Virus record (IMG/VR): IMGVR_UViG_2778261358_000016
Coordinates: 1-14,074 of that record
Length of the DNA stretch: 14,074 nt
Direction: 5' to 3' (one strand)
DNA from: a virus
Lineage: Duplodnaviria; Heunggongvirae; Uroviricota; Caudoviricetes
The position numbers and the translations under genes are program-made. The notes below the pieces were generated by a model, which saw only the letters and a list, made by a program, of their open reading frames with translations, was not told where the DNA came from and did no database searches. Positions 1 to 11,462 of the stretch are shown here, piece after piece (the stretch's first letter is position 1; each line of letters starts with the position of its first letter).

Positions 1-71
1 ATGATATACATGTTGATTACACTATGCATCGACAACGATGCCACATTTTTGGCTGGTTGGCAAATCTGTCA

Positions 72-257
72 TCAGGGCGGACAACAACGCCACGATCTCA
101 TCTTTCTTGGGCAATTTTTAAGAAAATCCTCAAGGGCAAATCTTTTTGGCCTTGCTTCCTGTTCATGGTCAGGCATTTCATCCATTTCTCTTAATTTTTT
201 TTCTACCTGTCTTTCAAGTATGGATAATGCGATTTCCCGTAATTCTTCGTTGTTCAT
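72..257 (-). CDS. Hypothetical small protein (61 aa), the only leftward gene in the island; candidate regulator
   Basis: AGGAG Shine-Dalgarno about 7 nt upstream of the ATG at 257 (minus strand); divergent from the rightward operon and adjacent to operator-like dyads; no recognisable motif. Confidence 0.35.
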   Translation of the reverse strand: MNNEELREIALSILERQVEKKLREMDEMPDHEQEARPKRFALEDFLKNCPRKMRSWRCCPP

Positions 258-482
258 TGTCTACTCCTGTAAAGAAATGCGCCGTAGTTCCTCACACCAC
301 GGCGCTGATAGTTTTTATCCTTTGGGTTCTATGCCGCGTTGCTGTAATTCTTTGCGGATTATTCGCTTTATCCAGGCAGCAAGAGAATCATCGCCGTCCT
401 GTTGTTGTGCCTTTTCCATCTTTTCCCGTAAGTCAGGATCTAAACGGAACTGGAACGGAGGATTACCACGCCTTTCGTTTTT

Positions 483-543
483 GTGTATTGACACGTTAAT
501 TACACCTCATATAATGTATTTATGTGTAATGACACATTACACA
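483..543 (+). promoter_or_regulatory. Two operator-like sites sharing GTGTAWTGACACRTTA (483..498 and 524..539); second lies in a perfect 8-bp inverted repeat TGTGTAAT-N5-ATTACACA (523..543)
   Basis: Direct repeat of a 16-bp motif spaced 41 bp apart, one copy overlapping the -35 and one just downstream of the -10; dyad symmetry typical of dimeric repressor binding. Confidence 0.4.
488..515 (+). promoter_or_regulatory. Sigma70-type promoter with consensus -35 TTGACA (488..493) and -10 TATAAT (510..515), 16-bp spacer, driving the rightward small-gene operon
   Basis: Exact hexamer matches read directly from sequence; located about 110 bp upstream of the first rightward gene with a strong RBS. 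Confidence 0.5.
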
Positions 544-623
544 CAATCAACACAAAAAGCAAAGCCCCGCACTGTAGGAGCAGTAACGGGGCTTCTAACC
601 AACAACGTAAACTAGGAGCCGTT

Positions 624-1947: not shown

Positions 1948-2247
1948 ATGAAACTTAAATATTCTGGCTTAACTGCCAGTGGCAAAACTCGCACTAAATT
2001 CATGCGCGGTGATATTTACCGCGACCAGTACGGCGGCACGGTAATGATTAAGGGCGTGGAGGAACGGCGCGTAACCTACCGTCGTGAAGGCTACGAATAT
2101 GATTGCGTGATGCCTGTTTATCAGTTCGACCGTGATTTTTCTCTGGTGCAGGCTGTACCGCGTAACGTTCCAACCAGCAGGGAGAAAGCACGCGCCAATA
2201 TTCAGGAAATAAGAAAGATGTTGAATGTATTCAGGGGTAAAAAATGA
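1948..2247 (+). CDS. Hypothetical small protein F (99 aa), translationally coupled to the replication helicase
   Basis: Stop TGA overlaps rep ATG (ATGA at 2244..2247); GGAG upstream; no recognisable motif. Confidence 0.5.
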   Translation: MKLKYSGLTASGKTRTKFMRGDIYRDQYGGTVMIKGVEERRVTYRREGYEYDCVMPVYQFDRDFSLVQAVPRNVPTSREKARANIQEIRKMLNVFRGKK

Positions 2248-3650
2248 AACTGGCACCGAACGTAAAACTGTTACCGAAAGATAAACACACTGAGGCGGTT
2301 ATTTTTGCGGGTGATAATGCTCACTCCTTTGCAGAACATTACATGATTGCACAGGCCAAAAAAGCAGGCGATCCCATCCCTCCGGTTTACCTGGGCCGTT
2401 ATCAGTTAAGCGAACTGGACAATTTACAGATTGTTGATGAAGGACGATACAGAGCAAAGGTCATACGCGCCGGAAACCTGGACGATATGCAGATGCTGAC
2501 CATTGCCACCAAACTGGCGATCGCAGGTGTCCGGGAAGCGCGGTTACTTTCAGAGAATTTCGAACTACTGGAGGACTGGAGCGAGCAACTACCGCGACTT
2601 AAAGAAACCTGGGAACGCGGGGAAAGTCTGGTCATGAATGGCGTAAAGCGAAAAATCACACTTCCCATCTCATGGGGTTCTGAGGGATTCGACGCGCAGC
2701 AAAGCTACGTAATTAAGGGGCTTATTCCGGCTGAATCATTATGCAGCACCTACGGGGCCAGCGGTTCTTATAAATTGTTCCTGGCTATTTCCTGGTCGTG
2801 CCATGTTGCCACAGGTATGGCATGGGGAGGCCGCAGGGTAAGTAAGGGCGCGGTTATCTATATCGCTGGCGAAGGCAGTATGGGCGTAAAACGCCGCGTT
2901 AAGGCGTGGGAGATAACCCACGACAAGGTGGTTACGGATTTGTGCATCGTTAACGCGCCTGTCTTCCCTGCATCGCCTGACTATGTGGAGCAGGTTATCA
3001 GGACTGCCGGACTTGTTAAGAGCAGAACGGGCGAAAATGTGCGGCTGATTGTGATCGACACGCTGGCCCGTTGCTTTGGTGGGAATGATGAAAATGATTC
3101 CCGTGATATGGGCGCATTTATCCAGGGGTGTGACGCGATAAAGCAGGCCACAGGGGCCACGGTACTGGTGGTTCACCATTCCGGCAAGGATGAAACAAAG
3201 GGGGCGCGAGGTTCCAGCGCATTCCGCGCTGCACTGGATGCAGAGTACCGAATCAGCCGGGAAAATTCAGACGTTACAGCACTGGTGGCGGCGTGTACGA
3301 AGATGAAAGACGCAGAGGAGCCAAAAGAGAGCGCATACGACCTTAAAAGCGTGGAGGTGTTTACCGATACCGATGGCGAAGAGATTGTGTCCATGGTGGT
3401 GATTGACGTTCCCCGCGCCCCTGCTGAACTGGAGCGCATAGAGGAGGCCGGGAACAAGACGGAAAATCACACGGCTTTATGGGGTTGTATCCGGTCACGT
3501 ATACAGCATGGTGATAAATGCACGATCCCGCTGCTACGTGATGACATGAAAAAGCTGGGATATGACACAAAACACCTTAAACGATGGTTAGCCAAACTGG
3601 AAAAAGACGGCGTGATTTGCGTCGATGGGGATGATGTTCACCCACTGTAA
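2244..3650 (+). CDS. Replication protein, RepA-like RecA-fold helicase (AAA_25 family) with N-terminal and C-terminal extra domains
   Basis: Motifs resembling RSF1010 RepA-type helicases: GASGSYKLFLAISW (P-loop region, deviant), VIYIAGEGS, VIDTLARCF (Walker B-like), VLVVHHSGKDETKGARGSSAF (HH..K and RGSS motifs); iteron array immediately downstream. Confidence 0.7.
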   Translation: MKLAPNVKLLPKDKHTEAVIFAGDNAHSFAEHYMIAQAKKAGDPIPPVYLGRYQLSELDNLQIVDEGRYRAKVIRAGNLDDMQMLTIATKLAIAGVREARLLSENFELLEDWSEQLPRLKETWERGESLVMNGVKRKITLPISWGSEGFDAQQSYVIKGLIPAESLCSTYGASGSYKLFLAISWSCHVATGMAWGGRRVSKGAVIYIAGEGSMGVKRRVKAWEITHDKVVTDLCIVNAPVFPASPDYVEQVIRTAGLVKSRTGENVRLIVIDTLARCFGGNDENDSRDMGAFIQGCDAIKQATGATVLVVHHSGKDETKGARGSSAFRAALDAEYRISRENSDVTALVAACTKMKDAEEPKESAYDLKSVEVFTDTDGEEIVSMVVIDVPRAPAELERIEEAGNKTENHTALWGCIRSRIQHGDKCTIPLLRDDMKKLGYDTKHLKRWLAKLEKDGVICVDGDDVHPL

Positions 3651-3714
3651 AAAGTGGGCGTTAAAAGTGGGCGTTAAAAGTGGGCGTTAAAAGTGGGCGT
3701 TAAAAGTGGGAATA
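3650..3714 (+). repeat. Iteron array: four perfect tandem copies of 13-bp AAAAGTGGGCGTT plus one degenerate copy; further GTGGG-core copies in both orientations to about 3895; candidate origin of replication
   Basis: Perfect 13-bp direct repeats start at the rep stop codon; inverted copy CGCCCACTTT at 3744..3753; additional AAGTGGGC/AGGTGGGC copies at 3774..3890. Confidence 0.7.
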
Positions 3715-4862: not shown

Positions 4863-4981
4863 TCATGTTTTGTAAATTATTTGTTCGTGGTTGTTCCACG
4901 TTGCTCGCTGACCGGAACGGCATATTTTACCCGACCTGAATCATGATTATTCTCGCCCGTGGTGCCAGGACGCTGGGGCCA

Positions 4982-5031
4982 TTTTCCCGCCTGTTAATGT
5001 GCTCGCCAATATTCATTACCAGGCGGGAAAA
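4982..5031 (+). repeat. Perfect 12-bp inverted repeat TTTTCCCGCCTG-N26-CAGGCGGGAAAA in the leader of the capsid operon
   Basis: Arms are exact reverse complements; about 90 bp upstream of the capsid start; not followed by a T-run on either strand. Confidence 0.5.
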
Positions 5032-5120
5032 CGATCGGTGCGATTACTGATTTCCTTATGAAAAACGGTTGAGTGTTTGCCGCGTCCTGGAGTTCCTTAC
5101 TTAACCCCAGGACTTTTTTT

Positions 5121-6278
5121 ATGCCGAGAATAATCGAATTACGCCAGCAGAAAACCGCCATTAAAAATCAGATGCGCGACATGCTGGAGAACGCGGAAAA
5201 AGAAAACCGCAGTCTTAACGATGCTGAGGGCGCAAAATTTGACGAATTACGCGCTAAAGCTGAATCCCTCGATAAAGACATTTCCCGCCTTGAAGCCATT
5301 GCAGACGAAGAGCGCAGCAAGCCAGGTAAAAGCAGCCAGACCACTGACCCCGCAGAACTACGCAACTACATTCTGACAGGTGAAACCCGCGCATTAAGTA
5401 CAGGCGTTCCCGCTGATGGTGGTTATACCGTTATCCCCGAACTGAACACCGAAATCATGCGAATGCTGACGGATGAATCCACCATGCGCCGCATCTGTAC
5501 CGTGAAGAAAATCAGCAGCAACGAGTTTAAGCAGCTTGTTTCCGCTGGCGGTGCGACCGTTAACCACGGTGAAGAGGGTAAGACACGCGAACAGACCAGC
5601 ACCCCGCAGATTAACGAGGTGAGCATTAAGCTGTATCCGGTCTATGCGTACCCGCGCACCACATAGGAAATCGTGGATTTTTCCGATGTGGACATCCTTT
5701 CATGGCTGACGGGTGAGATTGGCGACACCTTCACGGAAACCGAAGAAAGCGATCTGGTTGTGGGCGACGGTGACAAAAAAGCAAAAGGTTTTTTATCCGT
5801 ACCCCGTGCAGAGAAGAACGACAAAGAGCGTGATTTTGGTACGTTGCAGGTAATTAAACCTTCCGAATCTCTGGCGTGGACATCTGCGGACCCGCTGATC
5901 GACCTGAAATTTGCATTACGTAAAAAATACCGCAAAAACGCGGTCTGGGTGGTTAACTCCACGACGGCGGCAAAACTTCAGAAGGTGAAGAACGCGAACG
6001 GTGATTACATCTGGCGCGACCGTTTACAGGCGGGTGATCCTGATACGTTGCTGGGCCTTCCGGTCGAATATCTGGAGTTTATGCCTGATAACGTTATTGC
6101 CCTGGGTGACTTCAAACGCGGTTACTACATTGTTGATCACGAAACAGGTGTTCGCACCAGACCGGACAACCTCACAGAGCCGGGCTTCATCAAAATTTTC
6201 ACGCAGAAATATTTAGGCGGTGGCGTGGTGGATTCGAACGCGATCAAGATTCTGGAACTGCCACAGGACGACGATTAA
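5121..6278 (+). pseudogene. HK97-family major capsid protein interrupted by a single in-frame amber codon (TAG 5664..5666); pseudogene or suppression-dependent
   Basis: ORFs 5073..5666 and 5673..6278 are in the same frame, separated only by TAG; conserved capsid region continues across the stop (YPRTT*EIVDFSDVDILSWL...GDGDKKAKGFL); N-terminal coiled-coil delta-like domain; AGGA RBS before ATG 5121. Confidence 0.7.
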
Positions 6279-6288
6279 CAGCATACAG

Positions 6289-6319
6289 AAGGGGCTTAAA
6301 AGCCCCTTTAGTGTTTTAT
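6289..6319 (+). terminator. Intrinsic terminator/attenuator directly after the major capsid gene
   Basis: AGGGGCTT-AAA-AGCCCCT hairpin followed by TTAGTGTTTT; overlaps the protease start region. Confidence 0.5.
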
Positions 6320-6890
6320 GGGTGAAAAAATTATGAAGAGTATGGAAATCCGGTCATCGGAAATCACTACCAGCGGAGCCGGTACGCTGACGGGCTACGT
6401 TGTTCGCTGGGATAAGCTTTCAGAACTGCTATGGGGGGAGTTTTACGAAAAATTCCAGCGGGGGGCGTTTACTGAGTGGCTTGCGGCGGGTAATGACGTT
6501 CGCGGCCTGTATGAGCATGACCACAGCATGTTACTGGGGCGCACCCGTTCCGGCACGCTGAAACTGGAAGAGGACGAAACAGGGTTACGCTTTGAACTGA
6601 CCCCACCGGATACCAGTACAGGGCGCGACGTTATCGAACTGGTTAAACGAGGTGATATATCCGGCATGAGCTTTGGCTTTCGTTCCCGTAAGGATGTATG
6701 GGATACCACAACAGATCCATGCGTGCGCACCGTGCTGGTGGCGGAACTATACGAAATTACCGTTACATCCGTACCGGCTTACCCTGATTCCGGCGTGGAG
6801 CTGGCCCGCCGCTCCCTGTACGAGCAGCACCCCGAAAAAATGCCGCGTGCGGATAATCGCCGCTGGTGGGCGGATTTAGCGGGGGTGTGA
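6318..6890 (+). CDS. Prohead maturation protease, HK97 family (start may be 6333 or 6342)
   Basis: Position next to capsid and portal; motifs LYEHDHSMLLGRT and GDISGMSFGF consistent with HK97-type prohead proteases. Confidence 0.75.
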   Translation: MGEKIMKSMEIRSSEITTSGAGTLTGYVVRWDKLSELLWGEFYEKFQRGAFTEWLAAGNDVRGLYEHDHSMLLGRTRSGTLKLEEDETGLRFELTPPDTSTGRDVIELVKRGDISGMSFGFRSRKDVWDTTTDPCVRTVLVAELYEITVTSVPAYPDSGVELARRSLYEQHPEKMPRADNRRWWADLAGV

Positions 6891-6891
6891 T

Positions 6892-8103
6892 ATGTGGCCT
6901 TTCAGAAGAAAAAAAGAGCAGCGCAGCATGACGCTTGATGAGTTTATGGCGCTGGCTGGCACATCGAACACGGGGGCGGGTGAGTACGTATCATCGGGGA
7001 CAGCGGAATCACTGCCCGCCGTCATGAACGCCGTCACGGTCATCTCTGAGGCGGTGGCTACCATGCCGTGTTACCTGTACCTGGTACGCAATGAGAAGGG
7101 GAAGGAGGCCCGAGAGTGGCTTGATTCTCATCCGGTCGATCACATCCTCAACGAGCGCCCGAACGCATGGCAAACCCCCTACCAGTTTAAGCGAATGATG
7201 ATTCGCCACTGCCTGTTAAACGGTAATGCTTATGCGGTGATTCAGTGGGGGCGTGATGGTTTTCCAGTCGCTTTGCATCCTTACCCGCCGCAGTCGGTGA
7301 ACGTTGAGCAGACAGGTGAGCATAACTGGCGCTACTGCATCACTGACGCCTACACCGGAAACACCCGCAACTATTTACCGTGGGAGGTTCTCCACCTTCG
7401 TTACTCCACGGATGACGGTTTTATGGGGCGCTCACCTGTAACCATCTGCCGCGAATCGCTGGGGCTTGGGCTGGCCCAACAACGCCACGGCGCGAGCGTG
7501 ATGCGTGATGGCATGATGGCGGCAGGGGTTATCACGTCAGGCGAATGGCTGGACGGCGTGAAGGGCAAACAGGCATTAGCCGCACTGGAACGCTACAAAG
7601 GGGCCAGAAACGCCGGAAAAACGCCCATCCTTGAAGGGGGTATGAGCTATCAGCAGCTGGGCATGAGTAATCAGGATGCTGAATGGCTGGCCTCCCGTCG
7701 CTTCACCATTGAAGACATCGCCCGAATGTTCAACGTCTCGCCGATTTTTTTGCAGGAATACAGCAACAGCACCTACAGCAATTTCAGCGAGGCAAGCCGC
7801 GCATTTCTCACCATGACGATGCGCCCGTGGCTGGCGAACTTTGAGCAGCAGATAAAAAACGCCCTGCTGGTGGCCTCACCTGTACCTGGTATCCGGTATC
7901 AGGTGGAGTTTGACAGCGCGGACCTGTTACGGGCCACTCCTGGCGAACGCTTTGCCACCTATGAACGCGGCATCAAATCCGGCGTTATGTGCCCGAACGA
8001 AGCCCGCGAACGTGAAGGGCTGTCCCCGCGTGATGGTGGTGATGAGTTCAGCCAGGCATGGAAACAGGAAGTAAAAATCAGCGAGGGAGAAAAACCGGAA
8101 TGA
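6892..8103 (+). CDS. Portal protein, HK97 family
   Basis: 403-aa protein with portal-like conserved blocks (NAYAVIQ, EDIARMFNVSPIFL); start overlaps protease stop. Confidence 0.8.
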   Translation: MWPFRRKKEQRSMTLDEFMALAGTSNTGAGEYVSSGTAESLPAVMNAVTVISEAVATMPCYLYLVRNEKGKEAREWLDSHPVDHILNERPNAWQTPYQFKRMMIRHCLLNGNAYAVIQWGRDGFPVALHPYPPQSVNVEQTGEHNWRYCITDAYTGNTRNYLPWEVLHLRYSTDDGFMGRSPVTICRESLGLGLAQQRHGASVMRDGMMAAGVITSGEWLDGVKGKQALAALERYKGARNAGKTPILEGGMSYQQLGMSNQDAEWLASRRFTIEDIARMFNVSPIFLQEYSNSTYSNFSEASRAFLTMTMRPWLANFEQQIKNALLVASPVPGIRYQVEFDSADLLRATPGERFATYERGIKSGVMCPNEAREREGLSPRDGGDEFSQAWKQEVKISEGEKPE

Positions 8104-8438
8104 ACATAGGGCGACTGCGTGACAGGGTAACGATTCAGACCCTGAAACAGACCAGGGATATAACCGGCGAAATACTCGAAACGTGGGTGGACGGTCACAC
8201 ACTCTGGGCAAGCGTGAACATGATCAGCAGCAAGGAGGCCATTTCATCGGGTGCAGAACTGGCGACTGGAACGGTAAGGATATGGATACGCTACAGGAAG
8301 GACATCAACGCCACCAGCCGGATAAAGGTCAATACGGGGCCGCTGGCGGGGCGTGTACTGAATATCATCGGGCAGCCGCTGCCGGATGCCGCCAGGACAC
8401 GCCTTGAAATTCTTTGTCGTGAGGGCGCGGAAAAATGA
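8100..8438 (+). CDS. Head-tail joining / head closure protein (Phage_H_T_join-like)
   Basis: About 112 aa; N-terminal GRLRDRVTIQ...TWVDGHTLWASV pattern typical of the family; ATGA overlap with portal stop; GAGGGAG RBS. Confidence 0.6.
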   Translation: MNIGRLRDRVTIQTLKQTRDITGEILETWVDGHTLWASVNMISSKEAISSGAELATGTVRIWIRYRKDINATSRIKVNTGPLAGRVLNIIGQPLPDAARTRLEILCREGAEK

Positions 8439-8731
8439 CAGAAGAACTTATCACCCTGGAAGAAGTGAAACTCCATTGCCGCATCGATGGCGACGAGGAA
8501 GACCAGTTAATCAGCGGATACATCGCCGCATCGCTTGAGGCGTGCCAGATACACATAGGCAGGCGCTTTGATGACGGGCTGGAGTTCACGCCAGCCATAA
8601 AGATTGGCTGCATGATGTTTATCGCTCACCTGTATGAAAATCGCCAGATTGTCGCGGATAACGCAAAAACACGCGTACCCATGACGATTGGTGCACTCTG
8701 GACGGCTTACCGTGATGTGGGGGTGTACTGA
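8435..8731 (+). CDS. gp6-like head-tail connector protein
   Basis: N-terminal ITLEEVKLHCRIDGDEEDQLISGYIAAS matches the characteristic LxxAKxHLRID..D.LI motif of gp6-like connectors. Confidence 0.65.
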   Translation: MTEELITLEEVKLHCRIDGDEEDQLISGYIAASLEACQIHIGRRFDDGLEFTPAIKIGCMMFIAHLYENRQIVADNAKTRVPMTIGALWTAYRDVGVY

Positions 8732-9171
8732 TGCCGTGGCAACCATTAAGACGATGCACAGAACCAGGCTGTAACAGGCGCGTGAAGTCCGGCAAGTGTG
8801 AGGAGCACAGGCGGGCGGCATGGCGTGCAGAGGATGCCAGACGAGGACACCGCCGCGCGCGTGGGTACTCCAGACAGTGGGACAAATACCGCGCCATGTA
8901 TCTGAGTAAAAACCCGTTATGCGTGCGATGCCTTGAGAAGGGGATATATACGCCCGCCGTGGTGGTGGATCACATTATCCCGATTAATGGCGGTGATGAT
9001 GTTCTCTTCTGGCCCGAATGGAACCATCAGCCATTGTGCCAGGCGTGCCATAACCAGAAAACGAAATGGCTTGATCCGGCAACAAAAAGCAAGCGTGCCG
9101 CAGGTGGATTTCGTGAAGAGGAAGAACGGGCCGCTAACCGCAATAACTGGATGTATGACGCTGATGAATGA
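8731..9171 (+). CDS. HNH endonuclease associated with the terminase (HK97 gp74-like role)
   Basis: Cys-rich zinc-binding N-terminus and HNH motif VVVDHIIPINGGDD...NHQPLCQACHNQKT; sits immediately upstream of terS/terL. Confidence 0.8.
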   Translation: MPWQPLRRCTEPGCNRRVKSGKCEEHRRAAWRAEDARRGHRRARGYSRQWDKYRAMYLSKNPLCVRCLEKGIYTPAVVVDHIIPINGGDDVLFWPEWNHQPLCQACHNQKTKWLDPATKSKRAAGGFREEEERAANRNNWMYDADE

Positions 9172-9337
9172 GCGGGAACAAAACCGCCTTATCCGTGGAC
9201 TTATAAGGCAGCGTGACGCATGGAAGACACAGGAAACAGGGCATAAAGATAAAGCGTCAGGACGCGCAGAACGCATCACAGCGAAGCGATTAACCGACCG
9301 TGACTGCGAGGTTATGGAATGTTTCCGCAATCGCTGA
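9164..9337 (+). CDS. Hypothetical small basic protein (57 aa)
   Basis: ATG overlaps HNH stop (ATGAATGA); no clear RBS; Arg/Lys-rich; could be non-coding. Confidence 0.3.
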   Translation: MNEREQNRLIRGLIRQRDAWKTQETGHKDKASGRAERITAKRLTDRDCEVMECFRNR

Positions 9338-9460
9338 TGAGGCTGTATGACGGGGTGGGGGGCGTTTTCAGGACAAACCCGACCCCGCCGGGCACCGAAC
9401 GCCTCCTCAAATTTTTATGCACGGGAATTTTTTGAAAAATAATCTGGCGAAAAAATAAGC
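9338..9460 (+). other. Putative cos region between HNH and terS
   Basis: G-rich imperfect dyad GGGGTGGGG-N17-CCCGACCCC at about 9352..9386; position matches the HNH-cos-terS-terL arrangement known from HK97-like cos phages. Confidence 0.3.
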
Positions 9461-9817
9461 ATGGCAAGACCACCGAAAGCCCCCGCCTACCTGGATGATA
9501 TCGCCGTGAAGCAGTGGCGGGAAAAATCGCGGCAGCTTGCGGAACGGGGAGACCTTACCCCCGCCGACTGGAGTAATCTGGAACTGTATTGTGTCAACTA
9601 CTCCATTTACCGGAAAGCCGTTGCAGACCTTGCGGCGCGCGGGTTCAGCATTGTTAACAGTCAGGGCGGCGAGAGCAGAAACCCCGCATTAAGCGCAAAA
9701 TCCGACGCTGAAAGAGTGATGATAAAAATGGCCTCCTTGCTCGGTTTTGACCCGATAAGCCGCCGTAAAAATCCACCGGAAACAGAAGAAGAGGACGAGC
9801 TTGACCGCCTGGAATAA
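9461..9817 (+). CDS. Terminase small subunit (P27-family-like)
   Basis: About 118 aa starting MARPPKAP, acidic C-terminus, immediately upstream of and overlapping terL. Confidence 0.65.
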   Translation: MARPPKAPAYLDDIAVKQWREKSRQLAERGDLTPADWSNLELYCVNYSIYRKAVADLAARGFSIVNSQGGESRNPALSAKSDAERVMIKMASLLGFDPISRRKNPPETEEEDELDRLE

Positions 9818-11462
9818 GTACGCAGAAGACGTAAAAACGGGCAAAATTCCGGCCTGTAAACGGCTGAAACAGGCCGTTAAACGGTACTTTTCGGACCTTG
9901 AAAGCCCCCTTTACACGTTCGATCGTGAGGTTGTGGAGCGGTTTATTGCCTTTTCCAGGGTGTGCCCGCACGTAAAAGGCGCAATGCGCGGTAGCCCCAT
10001 TGAGCTGGAGCCGTGGCAGCAGTTCGCCTTTGCGTGCATCCTCGGCTTTAAGGTTAAGGCCACCGGACGGCGCAAATACACGAGCGCCTTTATCGAAGTG
10101 CCGCGCAAAAATGCGAAATCCACGACCGCCGCGATTCTGGCTAACTGGTTTTTGATTATGGAGAACGGTCAGCAGGATATCTACACCGCAGCGGTGAGCC
10201 GTGACCAGGCGCGGATCGTCTTTGATGATGCGCGTCAGATGTGCCTTTTATCCCGACCGTTACGCAGGCGGGTGAATATTCAGGCGCATAAGGTGATACA
10301 CCCGAAAAGCAACAGCCTGTTAAAGCCGCTGGCAGCAAAAGCGGCAACCATTGAAGGTACAAACCCGAGTCTTGCCATTGTGGATGAATATCACCTGCAC
10401 CCTGACAACGGGGTTTATTCCGCGCTTGAACTGGGAATGGGGGCGCGTCCGGAGGGGCTGTTATTTGCCATCACCACATCGGGGAGCAACGTTGTTTCAG
10501 CCTGTAAACAACACTACGACTATTGCTGCCAGATACTGGATGGTGAAGAGGTGAACGAATCCATGTTCGTGCTGATTTACGAGCTGGATGATGAAAGCGA
10601 GGTTGACGATCCGGCGATGTGGATAAAGGCGAATCCCAATATCGATGTTTCCGTCGATCGTGAAAAACTGGCCTCAACCATCCAGAAAGCGCGGGGAATA
10701 CCGTCGCAGTGGGTGGAGATGATGACAAAGCGATTTAATATCTGGTGCCAGGGGGCTACCCCGTGGATGGGTAACGGCGCATGGGCTGAGTGTGCCGGAA
10801 CGTTCACGGAGGAAGATTTACACGGCCAGGAGTGTTACGCGGGGCTGGATTTATCATCAACCAGCGATATTTCCAGCGTATGCTATGCCTTTCCGGTCGG
10901 TAAAACCATTATGCTGATTTCCCGTCATTATCTGCCGGAGTTCCAGCTACAGAACCCCGCCAATAAAAACCGCGCTGTCTATCGTCAGTGGGCTAAAGCG
11001 GGCTGGATACGCACAACGCCTGGCGACTGCATTGATTACGACCGGATCAGAGATGACATCATGCAGGACGCGGAGAAATTTCATATCAGGCTGGTGGGCT
11101 TTGATACGTGGAACGCCACGCATCTCAGAACGCAATTACAGGGGGCAGGTTTTGAGGTGGAGCCGTTCCCGCAAACCTACCTCAGATTCAGTCCGGCGGC
11201 GAAATCGTTCGAAGTTTTTGTTAACCGCAGGGTGATTGTGCATCGTGGCGATCCGGTGTTGTCCTGGTCGATGAGTAACGTCGTGATGCAGAGTGACGCG
11301 AACGCCAATATCAAGCCGAACAAGAAAAAATCACCGAACAAGATAGACCCGAGCGTGGCGGCACTGATGGCGTTTGGTACATTCCAGGCAGAGCATGAGG
11401 ATTTTGCTTTTGATATAAGCGACAGCCACCGCCAGAAACTGGAAGAATTCAGCGGGGTGTAA
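9801..11462 (+). CDS. Terminase large subunit (TTG start)
   Basis: 553 aa; ATPase Walker A-like VPRKNAKST and Walker B LAIVDEYHL; nuclease-domain motif GLDLSSTSD; GAGGA RBS 5 nt before TTG at 9801, which overlaps the terS 3-prime end by 17 nt. Confidence 0.85.
   Translation: MTAWNKYAEDVKTGKIPACKRLKQAVKRYFSDLESPLYTFDREVVERFIAFSRVCPHVKGAMRGSPIELEPWQQFAFACILGFKVKATGRRKYTSAFIEVPRKNAKSTTAAILANWFLIMENGQQDIYTAAVSRDQARIVFDDARQMCLLSRPLRRRVNIQAHKVIHPKSNSLLKPLAAKAATIEGTNPSLAIVDEYHLHPDNGVYSALELGMGARPEGLLFAITTSGSNVVSACKQHYDYCCQILDGEEVNESMFVLIYELDDESEVDDPAMWIKANPNIDVSVDREKLASTIQKARGIPSQWVEMMTKRFNIWCQGATPWMGNGAWAECAGTFTEEDLHGQECYAGLDLSSTSDISSVCYAFPVGKTIMLISRHYLPEFQLQNPANKNRAVYRQWAKAGWIRTTPGDCIDYDRIRDDIMQDAEKFHIRLVGFDTWNATHLRTQLQGAGFEVEPFPQTYLRFSPAAKSFEVFVNRRVIVHRGDPVLSWSMSNVVMQSDANANIKPNKKKSPNKIDPSVAALMAFGTFQAEHEDFAFDISDSHRQKLEEFSGV

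Follow-up and report, generated by a model that had tools for sequence, protein, structure and literature searches.

The island and its packaging genes

We analyzed a 14,074-nucleotide stretch of DNA (the window) that is 100% identical to positions 104-14177 of contig NJZN01000011.1 in assembly GCA_002460955.1. The window is an EcCIEDL933-type capsid-forming phage-inducible chromosomal island (cf-PICI) between roxA and phoQ on the E. coli chromosome, and both the cf-PICI gene content and the roxA-phoQ chromosomal site bear out the island character ascribed to this element in the first-pass annotation. The genes follow the order that matches cf-PICIs, namely, helicase, SSB, PerC, capsid, protease, portal, head closure, connector, HNH, TerS, and TerL, and the packaging genes that mark such islands were all found (PF05065, PF04586, PF04860, PF05521, PF05135, PF01844, PF05119, and PF03354/PF20441). 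No tail or lysis genes were found among the genes of the island, and between TerL and phoQ there is just one 93-aa protein of unknown function. phoQ itself lies after the island on the opposite strand, in the flank phoQ-phoP-purB. As for the PICI core, the window contains the RepA helicase, SSB, and iterons, with int and alpA falling beyond the window and past the point where the source contig starts; integrase and alpA are present at the left of the nearly identical roxA-phoQ islands in E110019 and Z1323HEC0393. The annotated genes of the E110019 island cover ∼13.8 kb, counted from the integrase gene through the final hypothetical gene, compared to about 15 kb for the cf-PICI class. The packaging module is contiguous on the 123-kb contig of the source assembly, and this contig begins just right of alpA, a layout that points to the left end as the sole repeated part of the island in the source genome.

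The replication module (2244-3710, plus strand) consists of an intact RepA-type helicase gene (2244-3650) and a 13-bp perfect tandem repeat, AAAAGTGGGCGTT, which is present in 4.7 copies at 3650-3710 on the same strand and begins at the RepA stop codon. The copy number of this repeat varies by strain, with one unit fewer in E110019 and two fewer in locus L011, and the repeats are probably the iterons of the island origin. The packaging genes are likewise encoded on the plus strand. The major capsid protein gene (5121-6278, 385 codons), assigned by PF05065 and by its identity to PDB entry 9GYI, is interrupted at codon 182 and is described below. It is followed by an intact prohead protease gene of the Peptidase_S78 family (6318-6890; 190 aa, equal in length to RefSeq WP_000504054.1), an intact portal protein gene (6892-8103; 403 aa), the intact head closure, head-tail connector, and HNH endonuclease genes (8100-9171; PF05521, PF05135, and PF01844, with lengths matching those of homologues), and the intact genes for the small (P27 family) and large terminase subunits (9461-11462). 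By domains and homologue lengths, every packaging gene other than the capsid gene is full length, in agreement with the earlier impression that the remaining structural genes look intact.

Two hairpins flank the capsid gene on the plus strand. The first, a stable structure with a run of seven U that ends at the capsid ATG (5084-5120), has a folding energy of -14.1 kcal/mol (z = -3.44), and none of 200 shuffled sequences was as stable. The sole Shine-Dalgarno-like bases for the capsid gene (CAGGAC) are buried in its 3′ arm, and in Z1323HEC0393 the same arm carries a change of CC to TT at 5106-5107. This hairpin may be a terminator or a translational gate for the packaging operon. The second, a strong terminator-like hairpin directly 3′ of the capsid gene (6288-6309), resembles the terminator annotated in HK106 downstream of its major head gene and may set the ratio of capsid to downstream products.

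Three further features of the window were seen outside the packaging genes. The Rfam C4 antisense RNA (RF01695) was matched at 969-1056 on the plus strand with 72.7 bits, against a gathering score of 45, within the region of an Icd-like ORF; together they resemble the c4-icd-ant immunity arrangement of phages P1 and P7. Positions 1-615 (plus strand) form a 204-aa ORF that is open from the first base and has no Pfam or PHROG match; RefSeq annotates two small ORFs on the opposite strand instead, and L011 has a stop at codon 182 of the 204-aa ORF. Lastly, the intergenic region between PerC and the capsid gene (4904-5001) contains 8 SNPs in ∼100 bp among otherwise near-identical islands, which suggests a recombination boundary or a fast-evolving regulatory segment.

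An amber codon at position 182 of the major capsid gene

Direct reading of the window sequence placed a TAG codon at 5664-5666, in the context CACCACATAGGAAATCGTG and within the longer stretch CGCGCACCACATAGGAAATCGTGGAT. The mechanically called ORFs 5073..5666 and 5673..6278 share one frame on the plus strand, and translation of 5121-6278 gave 385 codons with a single internal stop at codon 182, confirming the claim of the first-pass annotation that an in-frame amber codon splits the capsid gene. The start of the gene is the ATG at 5121 (MPRII...), as in RefSeq homologues and in PDB 9GYI, and the stop is the TAA at 6278. We rejected the GTG at 5073 as the biological start, as it is merely the first possible start after the preceding stop and homologues begin at ATG 5121. 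The stop leaves an N-terminal ORF of 181 aa and 20.3 kDa (5121-5666), which covers positions 1-83 of the 280-position Pfam HMM, and a downstream in-frame ORF of 201 aa and 22.5 kDa (5673-6278) that starts from a GTG and covers HMM positions 89-279; the TAG and this GTG are separated by two sense codons, GAA and ATC. ORF 5673..6278 is a by-product of the stop and not a conserved gene.

The identity of the interrupted gene is established at the level of a solved structure. With Gln restored at position 182, the protein is identical at 385 of 385 residues to chain B of PDB 9GYI, the major capsid protein of the prototype cf-PICI EcCIEDL933, which has an HK97 fold and forms a T=4 shell of 47.5 nm (10.1101/2025.02.11.637232). 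N-terminal cleavage of the EcCIEDL933 protein yields a 32.6-kDa mature protein that begins at residue 93 (10.1101/2025.02.11.637232), and the mass we computed for residues 93 to 385 is also 32.6 kDa. Without the stop, the computed mass of the whole product is 43.1 kDa, close to the ∼44 kDa estimated previously. Pfam PF05065 matched as one domain over residues 100 to 379, with the stop near HMM position 84 of 280, and this Phage_capsid domain is complete (1-279/280) only on read-through of the stop, so that neither fragment holds the full-length domain in one polypeptide. By homology to HK97 gp5, from which we take the assignment of residues 93 to 181, the 181-aa ORF would encode the coiled-coil segment removed on maturation (residues 1 to 92) followed by the N-arm and E-loop, and the 201-aa downstream ORF would hold the rest of the P-domain and the A-domain. 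An AlphaFold2 model of the capsid protein built from a 33-sequence alignment had a mean pLDDT of 50.7, with values of <50 across residues 67 to 242, and was set aside; our structural statements are based on PDB 9GYI and the accompanying paper (10.1101/2025.02.11.637232).

To the resolution of a single base, the intact form of the gene can be found in close relatives. Fifteen complete E. coli genomes match window positions 5000-6400 at 99.9%, and in the two that were compared base by base over this region, CFSAN061761 and E110019, the sole difference is at 5664, where the window has T and both relatives have C; their codon is therefore CAG (Gln). All sequenced comparators have CAG at codon 182. 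We aligned 121 homologue cluster representatives with 66 to 100% identity from Escherichia, Citrobacter, Salmonella, Morganella, Proteus, and Xenorhabdus, and Gln occupied position 182 in every one of them, inside an invariant T-T-Q-E-I-x-D-F-S motif. Gln was aligned at this position in the more distant capsid protein of the Rhodobacter gene transfer agent as well, and a relaxed PDB sequence search (E up to 10) returned no additional capsid alignment spanning residue 182. The earlier proposal that the stop is one transition away from the normal codon, in a conserved stretch of an HK97-fold protein, is thus supported by the C/T difference at 5664, the Pfam domain, the 9GYI identity, and the invariant motif. 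That proposal had named Gln or Leu as the usual residue; Gln was correct, and Leu was never seen. Nor do homologues consistently terminate here with a separately initiated downstream ORF, given the invariant Gln182 and the presence of Ile at codon 185 in 116 of 121 representatives.

Among the 3,465 possible single-base substitutions in the capsid gene, 129 (3.7%) create a stop, and a chance stop in this gene needs no special explanation. We also considered a Dcm deamination hot spot and rejected it, as the wild-type context is ACAGG and not CCAGG.

Carriers of the TAG allele and lesions in related islands

An exact-sequence look-up of both capsid fragments identified the TAG in 10 fetched loci beyond the source assembly, from nine further datasets that are both isolate and metagenome derived. 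The TAG datasets are SRR6396339, ERR180867, SRR29321906, ERZ28576141, SRR21858573, SRR15369461, ERZ28644226, SRR29071015, SRR18174127, and SRR15369618, one pair of which possibly belongs to a single project. One apparent divergent carrier, L010, was excluded; its contig has the wild-type base and stops at ...CACA, making the match an artefact of the contig end. Four long TAG contigs were available from four samples, including the source assembly, and all four place the island beside phoQ, at the roxA-phoQ site, with at most three flanking SNPs. The mutation is real and is inherited across datasets.

The allele is also rare. A 31-mer centred on the TAG had no match in 5,426 complete E. coli genomes; the capsid gene lacking the TAG 31-mer occurs in 358 of these genomes, all of which show one or more mismatches to a 63-base TAG-centred query. 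Likewise, the wild-type capsid protein was found on at least 1,000 contigs, compared to 9 to 21 for the TAG fragments; counted separately, the two fragments were recorded on 9 and 16 contigs.

The TAG copies are not identical to one another. One group carries T121S in the capsid protein together with R298W in TerL, another has the synonymous change 5969C, and three copies share the upstream block 4982C/4986T/5001T plus 6749G. One of these three, L017, is a mosaic across the portal and head-closure genes, with variants that also occur in CAG islands. The best complete-genome match to a CAG version of this mosaic backbone reached only 99.0%, and recombination and chimeric assembly are therefore indistinguishable in this case. 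Overall, the TAG backbones differ by 8 to 38 SNPs. The presence of the same TAG in nine further datasets and on several haplotypes speaks against the suggestion in the first-pass annotation that the mutation is very recent. Private substitutions in the TAG clade amount to ∼4 nonsynonymous (P28L, T121S, G58D, and R298W) and 4 synonymous changes, in addition to an in-frame 12-bp deletion in the portal gene; in comparisons of the window's genes with intact islands, the ratios of nonsynonymous to synonymous changes were 29:51, 45:134, and 40:161. The direction of the ∼4:4 ratio fits relaxed constraint, with counts that are too small for a conclusion.

Islands related to that of the window carry lesions of their own. 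In E110019, the closest complete genome, the same island occupies the same site and its capsid gene is intact; the RepA helicase there carries W184* and the protease is frameshifted (5244-6650 and 9305-9876, respectively, of locus L002). In L015 (ERR162635), where the island backbone is different and codon 182 is CAG, the capsid gene is frameshifted by the loss of 1 bp at the window equivalent of 5647, located 17 nt 5′ of codon 182; the deletion represents either another, independent lesion of the capsid gene or an error in the reads or assembly of this old run. Decay thus seems to be frequent and ongoing in islands of this type. Different lesions in nearly identical islands at the same site fit a repeated grounding of satellites after integration.

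Predicted consequences of the stop and relation to known systems

Taken together, these data make it very probable that the TAG is a vertically inherited Q182* null allele in one E. coli lineage, an ordinary knockout that grounds the satellite. A C-to-T transition turned the invariant CAG codon of Gln182 into TAG, and translation would end after 181 residues, leaving the cleaved N-terminal segment, the N-arm, and the E-loop, as judged by HK97 gp5 homology. With the rest of the P-domain and the entire A-domain missing, no T=4 satellite capsid would be expected to form, and the cf-PICI trait of building small capsids that are transferred with the tails of a helper would be lost. Single mutations of the packaging-module genes of EcCIEDL933, in all but the hypothetical gene 1792, completely abolished transfer (10.1101/2022.09.08.507074); replication of these mutants was unaffected, and complementation in trans restored their titres (10.1101/2022.09.08.507074). 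Because these mutants lose transfer and still replicate, we predict that upon helper-phage induction the TAG island would excise and replicate without packaging or transfer. The allele would then be passed on vertically with the host lineage, or be rescued only via capsid protein supplied in trans from a co-resident island, and polarity could reduce expression of the downstream protease and portal genes. We infer the loss of capsid assembly and transfer from these published knockouts and from the solved structure of the identical wild-type protein. Of the two alternatives raised by the first-pass annotation, an inactivating mutation is therefore upheld, with the stop lying within the sole capsid domain and published packaging knockouts abolishing transfer.

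Two findings count against a plain null allele: the remaining packaging module is intact in the window, and the TAG occurs on several haplotypes, a sign that it has lasted, and may have recombined, with no other obvious decay. Persistence on more than one backbone could reflect a successful host clone and recombination with other islands, or chimeric short contigs; trans-complementation or suppression is a less likely cause.

An unlikely alternative is that the island carries the null allele as a defective hitch-hiker and is moved by capsid protein supplied in trans from a co-resident, near-identical cf-PICI, which would explain the TAG on more than one island backbone. Some genomes do contain two or three copies of the capsid region, including two in E110019, and packaging-gene knockouts can be complemented in trans. 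The 8 to 38 SNPs between TAG backbones include variants common to CAG islands, and the short length of many TAG contigs is what repeated copies of the island in those genomes would produce. Against mobility of this kind, the long TAG contigs all lie at one chromosomal site, and the contiguous packaging module on the 123-kb source contig argues against a second near-identical copy in that genome. Moreover, the mosaic haplotypes come from short contigs, some of which are numbered like metagenome assemblies and are possibly chimeric, and the L017 backbone lacks a close match among complete genomes. A wider reading, in which the amber codon acts as a conditional switch via a suppressor tRNA or the island hitch-hikes on a co-resident cf-PICI as a satellite of a satellite, was retained because the TAG spans nine further datasets and more than one backbone and the other packaging genes are intact; we hold it to be decidedly unlikely. 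In a related variant of this reading, the 181-residue fragment might poison the capsid assembly of incoming relatives.

The first-pass annotation had also proposed a capsid that depends on amber suppression or read-through, in which the TAG would be decoded as Gln by an amber suppressor tRNA of the host or helper, or by near-cognate read-through, to give full-length capsid protein, perhaps conditionally or in reduced amounts. The change from CAG to TAG is one for which Gln-inserting suppression would restore the native protein; supE-type suppression or read-through by near-cognate tRNA-Gln would give the exact wild-type product. The allele has persisted, being present in nine further datasets alongside intact versions of the remaining packaging genes. 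None of 20 island genes has TAG as its natural stop, an outcome expected by chance at ∼19% if TAG makes up roughly 8% of E. coli stops, by our own estimate, and hence not significant. In-frame stops under purifying selection have been reported in bacteria (PMC7918605). On the other side, ARAGORN found no tRNA genes in the window or in HK106, the known and published helper phage. Recoding would entail several late-gene TAGs and a suppressor tRNA in the element or its helper, whereas only one gene is interrupted here, by one TAG. The frequency of the allele is very low, at 0 of 5,426 complete genomes and ∼1 to 2% or less of contigs with this capsid. A T=4 shell requires 240 subunits (60 × T), which basal read-through would be unlikely to supply, and 3′ of the stop there is one synonymous change, which has no statistical power and gives no evidence of selection. 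With no positive evidence in its favor, dependence on suppression or read-through is disfavored rather than refuted, and we consider it very unlikely.

A functional two-piece capsid, in which translation reinitiates at GTG 5673 and an HK97-like subunit folds from the 181-aa and 201-aa fragments, appears highly improbable. In its favor, the GTG follows the stop at a distance of 7 nt, with an AGGA before it, and the two fragments jointly cover nearly all of the Pfam domain. This AGGA is weak, however, with a Shine-Dalgarno spacing of only 3 nt from the GTG, and Ile at codon 185 in nearly all homologues leaves no conserved internal start. The stop and the downstream start are both unconserved, given Gln182 in all 121 representatives and the 358 genomes that carry the gene without the TAG, which is not the pattern of an evolved split gene. 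To our knowledge, no split HK97-fold capsid protein has been described. The split would also drop the invariant Q182, E183, and I184. Of these, E183 pairs with R156 in a salt bridge at the three-fold vertex of the shell, where the adjacent D186 likewise pairs with R345 (10.1101/2025.02.11.637232), and the capsid is very sensitive to substitution, as the single charge swaps K290D, E319K, and R345D each abolish transfer (10.1101/2025.02.11.637232). Finally, a sequencing or assembly error in the source assembly, which the single-base difference from otherwise identical relatives might suggest, can be dismissed, since the identical TAG is present in ten other fetched loci from nine further datasets in different archives and accession series, and these independent datasets differ elsewhere by several SNPs.

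The inherited null allele has practical implications. The two annotated "capsid" ORFs are one pseudogene, and satellite surveys should count the island as a defective cf-PICI. It represents a natural null allele of a structure-solved protein, and a one-base revertant would give a matched pair for transfer experiments. The island also exemplifies satellite decay, with capsid Q182* in the window and RepA W184* plus the protease frameshift in E110019. TAG carriers would be of wider interest only if found to transfer, via suppression or via capsid protein borrowed from another island.

Among known cases, the persisting nonsense polymorphisms described by Belinky et al. 2021 (PMC7918605) resemble the TAG allele in that the rest of the gene is intact, and they differ in that purifying selection 3′ of the stop is not evident in the window, where the counts are too small. 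As in HK97 gp5 (PF05065), the capsid protein shows one domain match, here running across the stop, a length of 385 residues, and an N-terminal segment cut by the neighboring S78 protease; unlike in HK97 gp5-type genes, the reading frame in the window is broken. The EcCIEDL933 capsid protein overlays HK97 gp5 with an RMSD of ∼1 Å (10.1101/2025.02.11.637232). The EcCIEDL933-type protein is distinguished from gp5 by its T=4 rather than T=7 shell, the lack of the K169-N356 crosslink, and an extra connector loop at residues 227 to 248. The window shares with EcCIEDL933 its gene order and gene families, a helicase-type replication module, an HNH/TerS/TerL packaging module without tail genes, and a capsid protein that matches at 384 of 385 positions, with the stop as the only exception. 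It differs from EcCIEDL933 in having TAG instead of CAG at codon 182 and in its location at roxA-phoQ, which is also the site of the CAG islands in E110019 and Z1323HEC0393. The window encodes a RepA-type helicase, in contrast to locus L001, which has a primase-family protein instead.

In stop-codon-recoded phages, TAG is read as Gln in late genes by means of a phage-encoded suppressor tRNA. The window is similar in having TAG at a Gln position of the major capsid gene, and it differs in that one TAG in one gene is involved, neither the window nor HK106 has a suppressor tRNA, the allele is rare, and the E. coli host uses the standard code. The closer parallel in kind of mutation is with the classical amber (sus) mutants of head genes, such as the lambda E and T4 gene 23 ambers. 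There, too, one CAG-to-TAG change in a head gene leaves an N-terminal fragment, and a Gln-inserting suppressor of the supE type would provide exact rescue. In contrast to those mutants, which were selected in the laboratory on suppressor hosts, the allele in the window is natural and circulates in wild and gut-associated E. coli. What the window shows is a nonsense allele, and both the gene that bears it and the mobile element were known before.
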